Part shown: positions 3,666 to 36,501 of the stretch, piece by piece
Numbering within the stretch: position 1 is the stretch's first letter
Layout of the letters: each line of letters opens with the position of its first letter
Virus record (IMG/VR): IMGVR_UViG_3300036446_000010
Coordinates: 1 to 36,501 of that record
Length of the DNA: 36,501 bases
Reading direction: 5' to 3' (one strand)
Source: a virus
Lineage: Duplodnaviria > Caudoviricetes
Notes under the pieces: model-generated
The model's database searches: none
What the model saw: the letters and a program-made list of their open reading frames with translations, nothing else
What the model was told of the DNA's origin: nothing
Translations under genes and position numbers: made by a program

Positions 3666-3977
3666 CTAGCCTCGAGGAGGGCTGTGCTTCTCCCAACGAT
3701 CGGCCAGGTGACGAGCGCGCTCCTCGACGCGCTTGTCCTCCTCTACCCGCTCAAGGAAGGTCTCGATGTGGTCGGCGATCCGCTTCAGCTGGGTCGCCAT
3801 GTCGTGGAAGGATTGGAAGTCGGCCACCGTCGCCCGCTTCAGGATGACCTGCTGGACGTCCGGTTCCGCCGTCTTCGATTTGCGGTAGCCGACGATCGTA
3901 GCGATGGCCGTCCCGACAAAGACGGCCAGAGCAGTGATGATCGCCGAGGTTTCTGACGAGAGCTCAAAGTTTGCCAC
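3666..3977 (-). CDS. Single-TM protein, holin/antiholin-like
   Basis: N-terminal TM (AIITALAVFVGTAIATIVGY) and a coiled-coil tail, located in the lysis cassette. Confidence 0.6.
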   Translation of the reverse strand: MANFELSSETSAIITALAVFVGTAIATIVGYRKSKTAEPDVQQVILKRATVADFQSFHDMATQLKRIADHIETFLERVEEDKRVEERARHLADRWEKHSPPRG

Positions 3978-4446
3978 GATCGGCTATCCCCGCATCGCGG
4001 GCGGCACGAAAGGCATTGACGCCGCAGATCATGGCCAGGCCGGAATAGACCGGGATGCCCGTGGAGTTGTACCCCGTGGCGACGATCCCGACGACGACCT
4101 GCATCCAGAACTGGCAGGATATGGCCGAGGTGATCGCCCGGATGTGCGGGCTGTACTTCGAGAACCAGTGGTCCTTGAAGGTGCCGTTGATGAAGAGCGC
4201 AGTGACCCGGAGCAACGATACGATCACAGCCGCCCACCCCCACGAATCTTCCCTCATCGTGGCAGCCATCACCGCCCAGACGGGCGACCGTGTGAAGATG
4301 TCTCCTTCCTGCAAGAGGGCCATGCCCCAGCCCAGCAGGACGAAGCTCATGATCCATTCGGTGATGCGAGGCACGAAGTGCGCGCCGACGCCCGTCATGA
4401 TGCGGAAGACGATCATCTTCGACTCCGTTCTCAGGGCGGCGATCAT
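3964..4446 (-). CDS. Multi-TM membrane protein, holin candidate
   Basis: About four hydrophobic segments; translationally coupled to the spanin genes. Confidence 0.6.
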   Translation of the reverse strand: MIAALRTESKMIVFRIMTGVGAHFVPRITEWIMSFVLLGWGMALLQEGDIFTRSPVWAVMAATMREDSWGWAAVIVSLLRVTALFINGTFKDHWFSKYSPHIRAITSAISCQFWMQVVVGIVATGYNSTGIPVYSGLAMICGVNAFRAARDAGIADRGKL

Positions 4447-27482: not shown

Positions 27483-27833
27483 TCAGACGATGAGCGTCGG
27501 CTCGATGGTCAGCGAGCCGCGCGCGAGCGTGTCGACGTTGCCACCCGTGTCGATGGCCTCGAGCTCGTGATAGTAGGTGCCCGGCGGCAGGCTGACCGTA
27601 TCCGCCGGCGCGATCGCCACGAGCACACGGCTGGCGCTTGCCAATGAGATGCCGCTGCTCGTGGTCTTCTTCAACAGGACGCTGGTGCCGCGGGCCTTCG
27701 GGTTACGGCCCACCCACCAGCGCAGCGTGCAGCCCGCCAGGTTCGCCGCGGATCCATCCGCCTCGAGGCAGCTGAAGGCGAGCGTCTTGCTGTCGCCCGC
27801 CACCATCTGCGCGTTCTGGTTGGTCGCCGGCAT
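27483..27833 (-). CDS. Ig-like / BppU-like virion protein
   Basis: GDSKTL..ANLAGCT..IAPADT..YYHELE..RGSLTI pattern. Confidence 0.7.
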   Translation of the reverse strand: MPATNQNAQMVAGDSKTLAFSCLEADGSAANLAGCTLRWWVGRNPKARGTSVLLKKTTSSGISLASASRVLVAIAPADTVSLPPGTYYHELEAIDTGGNVDTLARGSLTIEPTLIV

Positions 27834-29110
27834 CACACGATCCCCTTCAACTCGATGATCCGTGCGTCCCGCTGACCTTTGAGCTCCGTCACACCATCAC
27901 GACGTCCGACGAGCTCGATGGGCGTTCCCAGCACGGCCGCCGAGCCATCCCCCGTGGCGATGCCCTGGAGGAACACCGCAACGACTTGCTGGACGATACC
28001 GGAGACTACCGCTCCACCCGAGCGCACGCCCGGGATCAGGCTCGCCGTGACCGTGATCGTCGCGCCAGGCGCCGCCGTCCCGCTGAATGCGGAACCAGGC
28101 AGGATCGACGCCGTTACAGGGAGCGTCGCGCCGGAAACCGACGCACCACCAGAGCGCGCGCCAGCCGTGAGGCTTGCCGTGACCGGGAGGAGTACGCCCG
28201 TCGCCGTGGCAGAGACCGTGCCCGAGCCCGCGAGCAGCGACGCCGTCGCCGTCAGGGTCGTGCCGGCCTGTGCCGCGCCACCAGAGGCCGTGCCCGGGAT
28301 CAGCGACGCCGTCGTGCCGAGCGTCTGCCCGACCGCCGTGCCGCCTCCCGCGCCCGCCGCGCCGCCCGGAAGCAGGCTCGCCGTGACCGGCAGGGTCTGA
28401 CCCGCCGTCGATGCGCCGCCCGTACCCGTGCCCGCGACCGCGACGCTGGCCGTGGCTGTCAGGGTCGCCCCTGCCCGGCTCGCACCACCCGTCGCGCCAC
28501 CAGAGCTTGCCACGGAAGCCGTGGCCGTCAGCGTGGTCCCAGAAGCCGCCGCGCCGCCGGTCGCCGTCCCTGCGATCAGCGAGGCAGTGGCCGTCAGCGT
28601 TGCGCCAGAAGCGTTACCTGGGCTGGCACCGCCCGCCGAGCCCGCAATGAGGCTCGCCGTGGCCGAAAGCGTCTGGCCTGCGGTAGACGCACCACCCGTC
28701 GCGGAACCCGCGGTCGGGATAGACGCAGTCGCCGACAGCACCTGGCCCGTGGCAGACCCGTTGCCCGTCGCCGTGCCGCCGATCAGCGATGCGGTCACGC
28801 CTAGGAGGATCCCGGCCGCCAGAGCGCCGCCGATGGCAGCGCCAGCAGTCGCGATCGACGCGGTCGCCGAGAGAGTCGATCCCGCCTGCGAGGAGTTCCC
28901 AGACGCCGTGCCGGCGATCAGGCTCGCCGTAACCGAAAGCGTGGATCCCGCCTGCGACGCACCGCCAGACGCTGCGCCAGCCGTCGCGATGGACGCGGTG
29001 GCGGAGAGTACCTGACCTGACGCGTTGCCGCCGGTGGCCGCAACCGCACTTGGCGGCAGAAACCTCTTGCCTTTGCGGGGGCGCCTACCTCGCCGGAGCC
29101 AGATCGCCAC
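27833..29110 (-). CDS. Gly/Ala/Thr/Ser-rich repetitive fibre-like protein
   Basis: About 15 degenerate ~22-25-aa repeats GxTLxxTAS(L/I/V)xxGxAxGG, with almost no charged residues in the core. Confidence 0.8.
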   Translation of the reverse strand: MAIWLRRGRRPRKGKRFLPPSAVAATGGNASGQVLSATASIATAGAASGGASQAGSTLSVTASLIAGTASGNSSQAGSTLSATASIATAGAAIGGALAAGILLGVTASLIGGTATGNGSATGQVLSATASIPTAGSATGGASTAGQTLSATASLIAGSAGGASPGNASGATLTATASLIAGTATGGAAASGTTLTATASVASSGGATGGASRAGATLTATASVAVAGTGTGGASTAGQTLPVTASLLPGGAAGAGGGTAVGQTLGTTASLIPGTASGGAAQAGTTLTATASLLAGSGTVSATATGVLLPVTASLTAGARSGGASVSGATLPVTASILPGSAFSGTAAPGATITVTASLIPGVRSGGAVVSGIVQQVVAVFLQGIATGDGSAAVLGTPIELVGRRDGVTELKGQRDARIIELKGIV

Positions 29111-31472: not shown

Positions 31473-31571
31473 TCAGGTGAGGAAGACGAAAAGGGAGAAG
31501 ACGAGGGAGATGCCGGCGAACACGCCGCACACGGCAACCGCCTCGGGAGCGACGCGGGCGAAGGCCTTCAT
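31473..31571 (-). CDS. 32-aa hydrophobic peptide
   Basis: MKAFARVAPEAVAVCGVFAGISLVFSLFVFLT, with an ATGA overlap on the upstream gene and a GAGAGGG RBS. Confidence 0.5.
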   Translation of the reverse strand: MKAFARVAPEAVAVCGVFAGISLVFSLFVFLT

Positions 31572-31915
31572 GGCGCCCTCTCGTCGATAAACCGGGCCCA
31601 GAAGCCTTGCTGCCGGACGATGAGCCGGAGACAGGAGATCTTCCGGTTCAATTTGTGGCAGAGCGCGCCGACCGCCGTGACCGTGTCGTCGGGACCGCCG
31701 TTCGGGTCGTCGCCATAGAGCGTGTCGACGATCTCAGTCCGCGGCACCACCCGGCCCGGTCGGGCTGCGAGCAGGAGGAAGAGGTCGTACTCGAGCGGGC
31801 CCAGGCTCCGAGACCACGTCGTCCCGCGGAAGATCACCCGCCACGGCACGACGATCTGGAGCCGGCCCAGCGGCAGCGCGCGCGGCCGCACCGTCAGGAC
31901 AGGCGGTTGCAGCAT
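31568..31915 (-). CDS. Orphan OmpR/PhoB-type winged-helix DNA-binding protein
   Basis: LGPLEYDLFLLLAARPGRVVPRTEIVDTLYG..KLNRKI..QQGF; no receiver domain. Confidence 0.75.
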   Translation of the reverse strand: MLQPPVLTVRPRALPLGRLQIVVPWRVIFRGTTWSRSLGPLEYDLFLLLAARPGRVVPRTEIVDTLYGDDPNGGPDDTVTAVGALCHKLNRKISCLRLIVRQQGFWARFIDERAP

Positions 31916-32465: not shown

Positions 32466-32651
32466 GGTCTTTGGGCCTGGGCTCTGGGCTGCTGGCCGGG
32501 CAGTGCCACGCCTCTCTACTGCTATAGAGGTATGGCCGCATGAACACTTGACTATCTTTCGTTCTGTGAGCATGCGCGCGTGCCTGCTAATCCGCTTTGT
32601 GGCGTGGCATGGACTGCGGATGGATGCTGCACGAATGCTTGTGTAAGGGAC

Positions 32652-32680
32652 TTGTCGGCGGATGCGTATGCGCCTATATT
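32652..32680 (+). promoter_or_regulatory. Sigma70 promoter of the early operon
   Basis: TTGTCG-17 bp-TATATT. Confidence 0.75.
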
Positions 32681-32843
32681 CGCTTTGCGTCGTGAGACGC
32701 GGCGGCCCGGCATGGACGGGCGGCCCTCTCCCCGGCCCGGCATGGACGGGCTTACGGGGAGGGAGGGAGAGACAGGAAGCAGTGAGGAGAGGCGGCCCGG
32801 CGGAGTACGGGCTTAGCCTCAGAGCGAAAGAGGGAACGGAACG

Positions 32844-33566
32844 GTGCAAGCGATTGTCGCACGGATGGCGGAAGGAAGGGCGGCCCTCGCGGCTGGCCGG
32901 ACTTCCGACGCCGTGCGGCTTTTCGCTTCCGCCCTGTCGCTCGCCAACCGGCATTGCTGGAGCGCGCGCGGCCGCATTCTCGCGTGCCTCAGCTTCGCTC
33001 GCCGCGCGCTTGCGGCCGCAGCTGATGCGGCGGCCCGTGCGGTCCCCGCTCTTGTGGCGGCCGTGGCGGCCCGGGTTGCGGGTTCCGCTCCGGCCGCCTC
33101 TTCCGTTGATGCGGCTCCGGCCGCCTCCCGTGCGGCCCGGGTTCCGGCCGCTTCGCAGCATGAGGTTGCAGCATGTCTCTCGCAGAGCGTCGCGCCGTTT
33201 TCTTCTACTGGAACGCAGTCCGCCGGGAGGGCCGCCGCTCTTCCGATCCGGTCCGGATCGAACGCGGCGAGCGGATGGCACGATGGGCGCTCCGCCGCAT
33301 GGCATGGGCTGCGGGCCGCAGCTGAGGCGGCCCGGGAGGCGGCCCGTTCCGCCTCCCGCCTTCTCTCCCGGCTTTGCGCTGCGACGGTTGCCCGGTTCCG
33401 GGCGGCCCTCGGAACGCATGGCGCGTTCCCGCCCGGCATGACCGGGCGCGCACTCGGAGATGACTCCCATGACGACGATTCCGCAGGAAAATCGCAAGGT
33501 CCGCCGGTCCGTTCGCGAAGAACGGCGCCGCTTGACGCGGTCCGCCCGTCGCATCCGCATCGCTGA
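32844..33566 (+). CDS. Ala/Arg-rich hypothetical protein
   Basis: AGAGGG RBS and GTG start. The first ~60 aa look helical; the rest is low complexity and overlaps the 33469 ORF. Confidence 0.45.
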   Translation: MQAIVARMAEGRAALAAGRTSDAVRLFASALSLANRHCWSARGRILACLSFARRALAAAADAAARAVPALVAAVAARVAGSAPAASSVDAAPAASRAARVPAASQHEVAACLSQSVAPFSSTGTQSAGRAAALPIRSGSNAASGWHDGRSAAWHGLRAAAEAAREAARSASRLLSRLCAATVARFRAALGTHGAFPPGMTGRALGDDSHDDDSAGKSQGPPVRSRRTAPLDAVRPSHPHR

Positions 33567-33591
33567 AAAGCACGCGTTTTTGAACGCGTGA
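33469..33591 (+). CDS. 40-aa arginine-rich peptide (candidate ARM RNA-binding protein)
   Basis: MTTIPQENRKVRRSVREERRRLTRSARRIRIAEKHAFLNA. It is preceded by the same hairpin + GGAG + ATG layout as the two large downstream genes and is absent from the ORF track. Confidence 0.7.
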   Translation: MTTIPQENRKVRRSVREERRRLTRSARRIRIAEKHAFLNA

Positions 33592-33607
33592 CCGGGAGGG
33601 CTTGACC

Positions 33608-33823
33608 ATGAATCCGTCCGCTATCGCTCGACTCCAGGGCTTTGCCTTGCGTCGACTCCAGCTGGCCACGTGCGAGCACGAGTCCGTGCTTCTCCGCCAC
33701 GCGTTGCGCTGCATTCGCCTCGCAAGCACGGCCGTTCGCCATAGCGACTCCCGGGAGGCGGCCCGGCTTCTCGCCTGGGCTGTCGGCTCCGCCCGGGCCG
33801 CCAATGGGGAGTCCATGGCGTGA
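33608..33823 (+). CDS. Hypothetical helical protein
   Basis: GGGAGGG RBS and ATG at 33608. Confidence 0.65.
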   Translation: MNPSAIARLQGFALRRLQLATCEHESVLLRHALRCIRLASTAVRHSDSREAARLLAWAVGSARAANGESMA

Positions 33824-33918
33824 CCGCGCGTGACCTCTTCCGGGCCGCCTTCGATGCGGCGGCCCTCCTCCTCTTCCTCACGGCCGTGCTTGTCGCGGCC
33901 CTCGCACTCAACCCTTGA
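33820..33918 (+). CDS. 32-aa single-TM peptide
   Basis: GTGA overlap with the upstream stop, GGGGAG RBS; MTARDLFRAAFDAAALLLFLTAVLVAALALNP. Confidence 0.55.
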   Translation: MTARDLFRAAFDAAALLLFLTAVLVAALALNP

Positions 33919-33960
33919 ACCTTTGCCCGGCATGCCCGGGCGCAATCCTTGGAGTCCACC

Positions 33961-34857
33961 ATGTCAATGCATGTTCCCTCCCGGTCCGTTCTCGCCTCCC
34001 GTGCCATGCTTTGCGGCTTGACCATTCGCCAATGGTCCGCCCGTCGCCTTGACCGCAAGGTTACTGACGAGGTGAACGCCTCGCACGGCGCCGCAGCGGA
34101 TGCGGGCCGCTACAATAAGGCATTGGTCGCAAAGGACGCACTCGCGGGTATCGTCACGGCCGCCAACGCCGCCCGTTCGCTCCACTATGCCCGGACGTTG
34201 CCATGGCTTGACGAGGGCGCCCGCATCCTCCCGGCGGCGGGATTCGAGGCTTACAGTAACGCCATGCGCGACTTGCGCCACGCGTTCGAGGCGGCCGTCG
34301 CGGCGTTCGTTGCAGCCTATCCGTCATACGTGGACGACGCGCGACTCCGCCTCAATGGCATGTTCGATCCGGCGGACTATCCGGACGCGGCGGACATTGC
34401 GGACCGTTTCGCGTTCGGAGTCCGCATCCTCCCGGTTCCGGACGCGTCCGACTTCCGGGTTGACCTCGCGGACGCGCAAGCGGCGGAGATTCGGGCCGCC
34501 ATAGAGTCCGCCGCACGGGACGCACTCGCCAACGCCACGCGCGACGCATGGCAACGCGTGGCGGAGGTGACGGGCCGAATGGTGGAACGCCTCAACGCAT
34601 ACAAGCCCGGAGGCGCCACGGGCCGCGCGGAAAATGTGTTCCGCGACTCCCTAGTCGAAAACGTCCGGGAGTTGGCCAGCATCCTCCCGGGCTTGAACCT
34701 CACGAACGATCCGGCCCTTTCCCGCATCGCAGAGCGGATGGAGTCGGACCTTTGCCAGCATGACGCGGCGGACTTGCGAGACTCTGACGTGCTCCGCCGC
34801 GACACGGCGAAAGCGGCGGCCGCGATCCTTGCGGAGGTGTCCGACTTCCTCGCCTAG
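33961..34857 (+). CDS. DUF3150-like phage protein
   Basis: WSARRLDRK, TLPW..GARILP, FDPADYP, FRDSLVEN and LNLTNDP motifs; GGAG RBS. Confidence 0.8.
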   Translation: MSMHVPSRSVLASRAMLCGLTIRQWSARRLDRKVTDEVNASHGAAADAGRYNKALVAKDALAGIVTAANAARSLHYARTLPWLDEGARILPAAGFEAYSNAMRDLRHAFEAAVAAFVAAYPSYVDDARLRLNGMFDPADYPDAADIADRFAFGVRILPVPDASDFRVDLADAQAAEIRAAIESAARDALANATRDAWQRVAEVTGRMVERLNAYKPGGATGRAENVFRDSLVENVRELASILPGLNLTNDPALSRIAERMESDLCQHDAADLRDSDVLRRDTAKAAAAILAEVSDFLA

Positions 34858-34965
34858 GCGCGGCCCGCGTCCGCGTCACGTGCCACAAGCGCGCGTGACG
34901 CGTGGCGGACCGCTCCGCGTCCGATCCGGCCCGGCATGCCCGGGCAACCTTTGGAGACTGTCACC

Positions 34966-35958
34966 ATGGCCACGTTTCAGACCGTCCGCGCCGACATTGA
35001 GTGCGATATCGACTCCAACCTCCCCGTCATGCTTTGGGGCGCTCCCGGCATTGGCAAGTCGGACATGATGCGGGAAATCGCGGCGGCCCGTGGCGTGCCG
35101 CTTATCGACTGGCGCGCCAACCTCCGCGAGCCGATTGACGTGCGCGGACTCCCCACAATCGACATTGCGGCCCGGCGGACGGTTTGGCTCCAACCGGAAG
35201 ATTTGCCGGACGCGGACCGCGACGGGCCGGAGGGAATCCTCTTCATTGACGAGATAGTCAACGCCGCGCCGTCGATGCAAGCGGCCCTTTACGGACTCGT
35301 CCTAGACCGTCGCATCGGAGATTACGTGCTTCCGGCCGGTTGGCGCATCGTGGCGGCCGGTAATCGCATGGCGGATCGTTCCTCCGCCTCTCGCATGCCG
35401 CTCGCACTCGCAAATCGCTTTTCGCACTATGTGCTGGAGCCGGACGCGGACGCGTGGCGCGCGTGGGCGGAGGGCGCCGGAGTCCATCCGCTTGTCGTGG
35501 CCTTCATGGGTTTCCGCCCGAACCTGTTGCATGTCATGCCCGGGCCGGACGCCATGGCGTTCCCCTCTCCCCGTTCGTGGGCGGCCGTGTCGCGGATCGC
35601 GGATTCGCCGGACGGCGCCTTGTATCGTCGCGCGGCCGCAAAGGTTGGAGAGGGCGCAGCGGCGGAGTTTCAGGCTTTCGCCAAAGCGTGGCGCAACCTG
35701 CCGTCGCTCGCCACAATCCTTCGCGAGCCGGAAACGGCGCCCGTTCCCTCCGATCCGGCTGCGGTCTATGCCGTCGCCTCCCTTCTCTCGCGCAAGGCGG
35801 ACCGGATCAATCTCCCGGCAATTGTTCGCTATGCGGAACGCCTCGGAGGCGATTACGAGCGCTTCGTTGTGACGGATGCGGCCCGTCGCGACAACGGACT
35901 CAAGGCAACCGGCGCCTATGTGGCGTGGGCGGCCCGCAATGCCGACTCCATGATCTGA
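34966..35958 (+). CDS. MoxR-like AAA+ ATPase
   Basis: Walker A GAPGIGKS, Walker B ILFIDE, AAGNR, ALANRF and FPSPRSW motifs. Confidence 0.92.
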   Translation: MATFQTVRADIECDIDSNLPVMLWGAPGIGKSDMMREIAAARGVPLIDWRANLREPIDVRGLPTIDIAARRTVWLQPEDLPDADRDGPEGILFIDEIVNAAPSMQAALYGLVLDRRIGDYVLPAGWRIVAAGNRMADRSSASRMPLALANRFSHYVLEPDADAWRAWAEGAGVHPLVVAFMGFRPNLLHVMPGPDAMAFPSPRSWAAVSRIADSPDGALYRRAAAKVGEGAAAEFQAFAKAWRNLPSLATILREPETAPVPSDPAAVYAVASLLSRKADRINLPAIVRYAERLGGDYERFVVTDAARRDNGLKATGAYVAWAARNADSMI

Positions 35959-35972
35959 GGGGAGCCGCGACC

Positions 35973-36501
35973 ATGGCAAACGCTAAAGCCCTGCAACGCC
36001 TTAATCGGGCCCGGACCGCTCTAATCATGGACGTGCGCCATGGGTTCTATGGTGCACTCGCCATGCAAATGCCGTTCGTTGAGCGGCCCTCAATCGAAAC
36101 GATGGCAACGGACGGGCGGAGCCTCTTCTACAATCCGGAATTTGTGCTTTCGCTTTCGGAGCCGGTTCTATGCGGAGTCCTTGCGCACGAGGTTGAGCAC
36201 CCCGCGCGCGGTCACCATGTGAGGCGTGGCACGCGCGATCCGCGCGAGTGGAACGTTGCATGCGACTTGGCAATCAACCCGGACTTGCTAGCAGCCGGGT
36301 TCCGGCTCCCCGACGGCGCCTTGTACGACAAGGAATTTGTCGGCATGTCCGCCGAGTCCATCTATGCCGCGCGTGTCAAGCAACGGCAGAACGGACAGCA
36401 GCAGCAGCCCGGACAGCAGCAGCCCGGCAACGGGCCGCAGCAGCCCTCCGGAGGCGGACAGCAGCCGGGCGGCCCTCAGCAGCAGCAGCCCGGCGGACAG
36501 C
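35973..36501 (+). CDS. DUF2201-like putative metallopeptidase (VWA-associated), truncated by window edge
   Basis: Hand translation MANAKALQRL..TMATDG..YNPEF..VLAHEVEH..H..RR..WNVACDLAIN.., followed by a Q/G/P-rich linker. Absent from the ORF track because there is no stop in the window. Confidence 0.88.
   Translation, partial: MANAKALQRLNRARTALIMDVRHGFYGALAMQMPFVERPSIETMATDGRSLFYNPEFVLSLSEPVLCGVLAHEVEHPARGHHVRRGTRDPREWNVACDLAINPDLLAAGFRLPDGALYDKEFVGMSAESIYAARVKQRQNGQQQQPGQQQPGNGPQQPSGGGQQPGGPQQQQPGGQ

Follow-up and report, generated by a model that had tools for sequence, protein, structure and literature searches.

Lambda N is a protein of about 110 residues with the arginine-rich motif (ARM) at its N-terminus and a C-terminal part that contacts NusA and enters RNA polymerase (RNAP); the nut sites include boxA (PMC8632103). 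The ARM takes a helical fold on boxB (PMC11480772). The Nun protein of HK022 (110 residues) arrests RNAP on lambda DNA (PMC5386594), and the put RNA of the same phage is a promoter-proximal leader with several hairpins (PMC8632103). Phage proteins that act on translation include T4 RegA, with about 30 phage mRNAs as targets (PMC3014915), and Com of phage Mu, a small protein that binds the mom mRNA and alters its translation (PMC6483171). The PeSL cassettes of T4-type phages are stem-loop units repeated between small early genes that vary (PMC4122927).

The window analysed here is the whole 36,501-nucleotide stretch (IMG/VR record IMGVR_UViG_3300036446_000010), which is one viral contig. A sequence-only reading had pointed to an arginine-rich peptide of 40 residues encoded in it, had likened the peptide to lambda N and Nun and had proposed it as the binder of GCCCG hairpins nearby. 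The peptide is assigned here to an unnamed microprotein family encoded beside a hairpin system; a link between peptide and hairpins is plausible.

Early operon

The head, tail and lysis genes of the contig lie on the minus strand. A plus-strand operon runs from a promoter-like site as far as the contig end and encodes, in order, ORFs of 240, 40, 71 and 32 residues, a DUF3150-like gene, an AAA ATPase and a DUF2201 gene. A sibling locus, L208, shows 88.5% nucleotide identity over the operon. The features are as follows.

32652–32680, plus strand: sigma-70-like promoter match heading the early operon (9/12, consensus match only)
32687–32830, plus strand: structured leader with four hairpins, three of GCCCG/CGGGC type (fold z = −3.12, 0/200 shuffles)
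32844–33566, plus strand: 240-aa Ala-rich ORF, the first gene (60% identical to a 206-aa ORF of L208, frame kept)
33456–33467, plus strand: Shine–Dalgarno sequence (SD) GGAG, pairable with CTCC in a 4-bp stem (sequence and folds; stem kept in L208)
33469–33591, plus strand: 40-aa Arg-rich microprotein gene (motif R-x2-RR-x5-K-x2-FL at 33538–33582)
33571–33590, plus strand: 8-bp hairpin within the last codons of the peptide gene, just before the SD of the next gene (fold)
33608–33823, plus strand: 71-aa ORF, function unassigned (versus L208, seven synonymous and two non-synonymous codon changes)
33820–33918, plus strand: 32-aa hydrophobic ORF (no family match in Pfam and PHROG scans)
33961–34857, plus strand: DUF3150-like gene (PF11348, E 1.1e-4, below the curated cut-off)
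34966–35958, plus strand: AAA ATPase (phrog_1297, E 4e-80; PF07728)
35973–36501, plus strand: DUF2201_N putative metallopeptidase gene, truncated by the contig end (PF13203, E 3.6e-30)

The closest named relatives of the DUF3150-like gene are found in Rhizobiales genomes, which points to an alphaproteobacterial host. In the one DNA sequencing run with matching reads, which may be the source sample, the early region was covered in pieces; no RNA data set was listed as containing it.

The leader of L208 has kept the stems and changed the loops, with a fold z of only −1.27. GGA is present in the loops of three leader hairpins of the window (32705–32812) and of two in L208 (4255–4411), and both phages have CAGGAAG in the leader linker; these elements presumably recall CsrA/RsmA sites.

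The 240-aa ORF, an orphan, begins with a short helical stretch and ends in an Ala-rich tail that is also open in L208; no shorter homolog was found for its residues 1–75. The tail overlies the hairpin and SD of the peptide gene, so that ribosomes translating this ORF would cross both.

Between the early region (32560–36501) and the rest of the contig, GANTC differs in frequency (6.85 versus 1.46 per kb), as do GATC (3.0 versus 9.8), CCWGG (0.5 versus 4.6) and CAG/CTG (17 versus 41), which suggests restriction-site avoidance together with CcrM-site enrichment. A stand-alone Trans_reg_C gene (OmpR-type winged helix; 31568–31915, minus strand) adjoins an HNH gene, and 60-nt tandem repeats and an Ala/Gly/Thr-rich repeat protein lie at 83–442 and 27833–29110.

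Repeated hairpins

The pattern GCCCGGCATGNNCGGGC has five matches in the window, all within 32705–34945 (shuffle mean 0.50, maximum 2). Together with a variant copy they make six hairpins, three in the leader and three that end 7–9 nt before GGAG and 19–21 nt before ATG.

32705–32721, plus strand: repeated hairpin, leader copy 1 (in L208 a G-C pair has become T-A, a compensatory change)
32735–32751, plus strand: repeated hairpin, leader copy 2 (pattern match)
32795–32812, plus strand: variant hairpin, leader copy 3 (variant of GCCCGGCATGNNCGGGC)
33431–33447, plus strand: repeated hairpin before the peptide gene, with 8 nt between stem and GGAG and 21 nt between stem and ATG (kept in L208, one C-G to U-G change)
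33925–33941, plus strand: repeated hairpin, 9 nt before GGAG and 19 nt before ATG (pattern match)
34929–34945, plus strand: repeated hairpin, 7 nt before GGAG and 20 nt before ATG (pattern match)

Covariation in the window lineage amounts to one compensatory pair (44/500 shuffles), with one G-U change besides, among nine copies. Relatives have a repeated hairpin of their own just before the SD of many early genes. For the covariation test, sites were picked by the loop only in 12 loci already known for AUNG hairpins. Three flanking Watson–Crick pairs were present at 72/97 of the loop-picked sense-strand sites before an SD, a number that none of 5000 flank shuffles reached, and at 4/145, 2/29 and 3/188 control sites (9/362 together). 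The second stem pair of the loop-picked sites was C-G in 42, T-A in 19 and G-C in 18. The sequence-only reading had treated the hairpins as RNA structures and this is upheld by the pairing of the flanks; to judge from their covariation in relatives, the hairpins are RNA-type stems.

Rfam gave nothing credible in the window; in 7 plus 5 relatives its matches were tRNAs only. A single AUNG spelling of hairpin plus SD was counted seven times in one prophage, on one strand, and once among 400 other host-family genomes; it is therefore no common host site. The hairpin spelling of the window was found at 22 other viral loci, mostly as a single copy, often before a T-run and at none with the peptide. 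It is reused in unrelated phages (L168–L189) as terminator-like stems before tail genes, and L171 (42% GC) has two copies directly before SDs.

A type III hammerhead ribozyme lies directly 5′ of a conserved hairpin and SD in L022 (8676–8738) and L095 (6840–6902). Stem I differs between the two yet is paired; the Rfam match (RF00008, E 0.0013) is below the gathering score. Five hammerhead-like cores were seen in the early region of L043 (at 8764, 13116, 13969, 14693 and 15335), and others at L084 9894 and L011 4626. A conserved ORF of eight codons, preceded by a strong SD and itself a hairpin, lies inside a larger conserved intergenic block in L004 (about 4040–4066), L005 (3701–3727) and L010 (about 3885–3911).

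Microprotein gene

The peptide gene is the second ORF downstream of the promoter-like site. It has, as claimed earlier, its own hairpin (33431–33447) and SD, with GGAG at 33456–33459, 9 nt upstream of the ATG; another ATG, at 33460, follows GGAG without any spacer. The description of the peptide as unannotated has to be corrected: the identical sequence is present, without a name, in a protein collection (P0001), so the ORF had already been called as a gene. The product contains 11 Arg, 2 Lys and 4 acidic residues and is predicted by AlphaFold to form one helix (residues 6–39, pLDDT 92).

The hairpin, the SD and the first 98 nt of the gene overlap the tail of the 240-aa ORF in a different frame. 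L208 keeps 38/40 peptide residues with the motif intact; the changes in the peptide frame are three synonymous and two non-synonymous (small numbers), and those in the other frame of the overlap are none and three, respectively. Three of the six base changes in the L208 peptide gene fall in the loop of the hairpin at 33571–33590 and none in its stem. The earlier claim of a conserved ORF is borne out by L208 and by a family of 77 proteins; judged by its sequence, the ORF is a conserved gene and a member of this family. It is an outlier there, without the N-terminal half of the motif and without F(−10) and G(−4), and scores 27.7 on the full core (family 33.3–74.4) and 33.6 on the C-terminal core (family 26.5–46.1).

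Microprotein family

A short ORF whose motif is spaced as in the peptide, R-x2-RR-x5-K-x2-[FW]-L, was present in two of the first 11 relatives. Over 82 sources the strict motif was found in 7/3175 short SD-led plus-strand ORFs and in 0/3084 on the minus strand. All seven lie within about 500 nt upstream of a DUF3150-like gene, and 4/7 had no part in deriving the motif. A profile search with the seven sequences gave 26 proteins and 57 cluster representatives (77 distinct sequences including that of the window). The proteins have 33–88 residues (median 43) and a median net charge of +8, and the motif sits just before the stop codon. Its register is fitted by 75/77 members and the chain ends 5–17 residues past the Lys. 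In these 75, Gly occupies −4 in 68, position −10 is Phe/Tyr in 67, and 73 have an aromatic residue at +13, the C-terminal columns having been selected by the profile used to collect the members. The members with an organism name, all hypothetical proteins, come from Rhizobium azibense, R. lusitanum and Methylorubrum populi (Mpop_2695); L095 is an R. lusitanum prophage.

A DNA-pattern scan yielded 16 members among 34 viral loci, after 18/34 had been dropped as chance frames; 13 members were new and only one of their loci has a DUF3150 gene nearby. A second pattern, with 7/14 dropped, added L201, L202, L208 and L209, and all 11 loci of one further scan were contigs already in the set. No match to the peptide or the 26 members was found in Pfam or PHROG (E up to 1), nor to the peptide and members in the PDB by sequence or by fold, and the ESM Atlas gave no usable match. 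A locus search with a three-sequence peptide alignment found nothing. The peptide profile returned only the known case in 301 host-order genomes (at most 24 candidates scored per genome) and no peptide in five further genomes, in a scan run without a positive control. The family is one of unnamed arginine-rich phage microproteins, with a single helix as the AlphaFold model for the window peptide.

Comparison with lambda N and Nun

Lambda N and P22 gp24 have in common with the peptide a short Arg-rich stretch, predicted to be helical here; a short Arg-rich segment able to form a helix is what characterizes the ARM class of RNA-binding proteins, and the predicted structure of the peptide has one. 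Their boxB sites are likewise small phage-specific hairpins of early transcripts with a variable stem and a fixed loop. N and gp24 have 100–107 residues versus 40 here, and the earlier remark that the peptide is much shorter than N is correct, also for the family as a whole (33–88 versus about 110). The motif is C-terminal with nothing behind it. The hairpin sites lie at many gene starts, and the peptide gene, second in the window and further down in relatives, is not the first of its operon. The hairpin loops of the window are CAUGN; a boxB loop is GNRA-like and made of purines, GAAGA/GAAAA in lambda. The boxA 7-mer occurs only twice, both times inside the 240-aa ORF, and not beside a hairpin.

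The N-family profiles (PF11438, PF25694 and the PHROG N families) matched neither the peptide nor the 26 members; as a control, lambda N and P22 gp24 matched their own families in the same kind of scan. On the full core of the family matrix lambda N scores −21.6 (557/2000 shuffles) and P22 gp24 −20.8 (595/2000); over the last 15 columns lambda N is reached by 22/2000 shuffles. The RRxRxAEKxA pattern that had suggested lambda N is indeed present in the peptide, but in only 2/77 members, and Glu at that column is found in 4/75. Kinship with lambda N was thus not confirmed. HK022 Nun shares the spacing R-x2-RR-x5-K with the family (1/2000 shuffles) and is the best of the three proteins on the matrix, at −5.3 versus 33–74 for members. 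Unlike Nun, the family has no residues for a counterpart of the C-terminal RNAP-arrest segment, since only 5–17 follow the Lys. The peptide was rejected as a member of N/Nun: it has no N-family match, lambda N scores like its own shuffles, there is no boxA, the chain is too short for a Nus- or RNAP-binding part and the gene is not the first.

A likeness to ribosomal protein bS21 was also rejected: there was no PF01165 match among the 26 members, and one extracted locus (1/8 fetched) scored −22.8 (567/1000 shuffles; hhalign 0.2%).

Co-occurrence of peptide and hairpins

An array was defined as three or more hairpins per locus; the loop classes AUNG and ANYA were set after looking. AUNG arrays are present at 8/24 peptide loci and 1/48 loci without the peptide (Fisher 4e-4; the lineages are not independent and 15/24 peptide loci were chosen by the peptide), and ANYA arrays at 0/24 and 14/48, respectively. 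Within the DUF3150-selected set only two of the peptide lineages, L022/L023/L095 and L026, have AUNG arrays and so carry the association. A hairpin-only search, made after the loop had been noticed, gave one new multi-copy locus, L192, which carries the peptide; the other seven new loci have neither array nor peptide. L201 and L202 were found by the peptide alone and both have AUNG arrays.

The AUNG array is absent at 16/24 peptide loci, the window included, and no clear repeated hairpin was seen at the peptide loci L132, L134 and L138. Only 7/50 DUF3150 phage records (of 65 intended) have the peptide at E below 1e-4, three weak matches (E 0.0035–0.0076) being left out of this count; its absence from the other 43 is limited by a loose first pass and a 41-position model. 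Further arrays in which no peptide was detected are those of L043, L048, L061 and L063. L015, L049 and L091 have ANYA arrays with no detectable peptide, and these three and L025, all four 92–96% complete, contain neither this family nor the second one described below.

The window has CAUGN loops and the nearest peptides (L201 and L202) go with AAUCGU loops; in L208 the peptide core is unchanged while the leader loops differ. No peptide-to-loop code emerges across the loci. As hairpins precede most early genes, the one before the peptide gene is not specific. The expected co-occurrence thus holds for AUNG arrays, but arrays are common without the peptide and the loop of the window is not AUNG. 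Hairpins kept by related phages without the peptide, named beforehand as an argument against the pairing of the two, are found in part, the ANYA arrays being an example.

A second unnamed microprotein family of about 60 residues, HP[HYG][FY]E[TS]...R[IV]L, was noticed in L016 (7689–7871) and 15 other loci. It is mostly SD-led, lies behind a hairpin in several loci and has no PHROG match better than E 0.017. All 16 loci are peptide-negative, and the second family, never found with the first, is absent from 18/18 peptide records. In a quick tree of 49 rows the 16 loci all belong to a single starred clade, and because of this confinement the mutual exclusion of the two families is not independent evidence. 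Homology of the second family (HPxFET...RIL) with the first was rejected (hhalign 0.7%).

Discussion

We propose, tentatively and at rather less than an even chance, that a stand-alone Arg-rich helix binds the hairpins and damps the translation of early genes, its own included. The ORF, its family, the hairpins, the covarying stems of relatives and the fixed hairpin–SD distance were seen directly. By analogy with the N peptides, binding to the hairpins repeated ahead of the ribosome-binding sites of early genes is likely: the peptide would be translated from its own SD-led ORF, and its helix would bind the groove beside the hairpin loop as N peptides do on boxB. The stems end 19–21 nt before AUG, roughly where a 30S subunit on the mRNA has its 5′ edge, so that initiation or mRNA protection would be the step affected by bound peptide; translation of early genes would be damped, and the peptide would limit its own synthesis via its own hairpin. 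Repression with self-feedback is somewhat preferred to activation or stabilization, given that one of the sites precedes the gene of the peptide itself. The lack of an effector segment, of boxA and of a terminator excess, and the location of the sites at the 5′ edge of the ribosome, make antitermination less likely than an effect on initiation or on mRNA protection. The sequence-only reading had also leaned towards translation or RNA stability, which fits better.

An only slightly smaller chance is given to hairpins that act in cis with host machinery, as mRNA protection, initiation aids, processing landmarks or PeSL-like gene-swapping joints, the peptide being one of many small early proteins with another acidic target (e.g. 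rRNA, host RNA, DNA or RNA polymerase). The frequent arrays without peptide and the absence of a peptide-to-loop code agree with this, and the peptide core hardly varies among phages whose loops differ greatly, as a fixed host target would lead one to expect. In L022 and L095 the hammerheads immediately 5′ of the hairpin point to RNA processing, and the spelling of the window serves elsewhere as terminator-like stems. Conserved loops on freely varying stems, however, suggest a partner that reads the loop, AUNG arrays accompany the peptide and the motif is no common host chromosomal site. It is unlikely that the peptide exerts N- or Nun-like control, tethering the hairpins to RNAP and Nus factors for read-through of Rho-dependent stops or arresting the transcription of a competing phage. 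Three hairpin copies are indeed no more than about 125 nt from the promoter-like site, a nut- or put-like position; the early operons are long, with hairpins of L022 recurring about 11 kb past a promoter match, and there is the weak Nun-like spacing. The chain nevertheless ends 5–17 residues past the Lys, where the C-terminal part of N serves NusA and RNAP (PMC8632103), no lambda-type boxA lies near the hairpins, the hairpin sites recur at gene starts and terminator-like sites are no commoner than in shuffles in the window and three relatives.

The repeats as DNA sites (phage-specific promoters or operators), with a DNA-binding or DNA-condensing basic peptide, seem very improbable to us. The repeats are inverted, positions 2 and 6 of many loops are A and T as in a −10 hexamer, and the peptide is very basic; but stem letters vary with pairing kept, G-U closing pairs included, on the sense strand before SDs only, and the peptide gene belongs to the early region, on the strand opposite to that of the head and tail genes. 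Least credible of all is an untranslated ORF that is a by-product of the overlapping 240-aa gene. The 98-nt overlap with a conserved ORF, the pairable SD and the missing F(−10) and G(−4) with the low full-core score would agree with it, against a C-terminal core score in the family range, SD-led stand-alone homologs in many phages and changes in L208 that favour the peptide frame.

RegA resembles the peptide as proposed here in being one small phage protein that damps initiation of many phage mRNAs. It differs as a 122-aa globular protein that binds unstructured AU-rich sites at AUG, and to our knowledge no sequence link to the peptide is to be expected. Com is a zinc-finger activator with one target, whereas the family here has no conserved Cys. 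By analogy, both may serve as functional precedents for the proposed role. PeSLs are promoter–terminator composites, whereas the window hairpins have no U-run, are not promoters by scan and keep a fixed SD distance; one promoter-like site was found for the whole region and no terminator-like site at the repeats. HK022 put RNA differs in that no Rfam match was found here and the same hairpin recurs at downstream gene starts.

No description of the microprotein family or of the hairpin-before-SD architecture was found in the literature, mostly open-access; the hairpins are not mentioned in the available part of PMC12429752, nor were such hairpins found in the main text of PMC5737381 as far as it was available. 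At the least, the early operons of phages from Rhizobiales and related bacteria gain an unnamed microprotein family and a recurring hairpin-before-SD architecture; the Pfam, PHROGs and Rfam scans run matched neither. Possibly, though we would sooner bet against it, they belong to an undescribed, widespread layer in alphaproteobacterial phages: a hairpin `barcode', particular to each phage, on early ribosome-binding sites would be read by an effector-less Arg-rich helix of 33–65 residues that sets early translation, with the second, unrelated family replacing the helix in one clade. If the proposed mechanism is true, an operon-wide translational switch can work with nothing but an arginine-rich motif, and new small peptide–RNA pairs would be at hand for tethering tools beside lambda N/boxB. 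If barcode reading is true, the pairs would be a natural library of orthogonal peptide–RNA switches.
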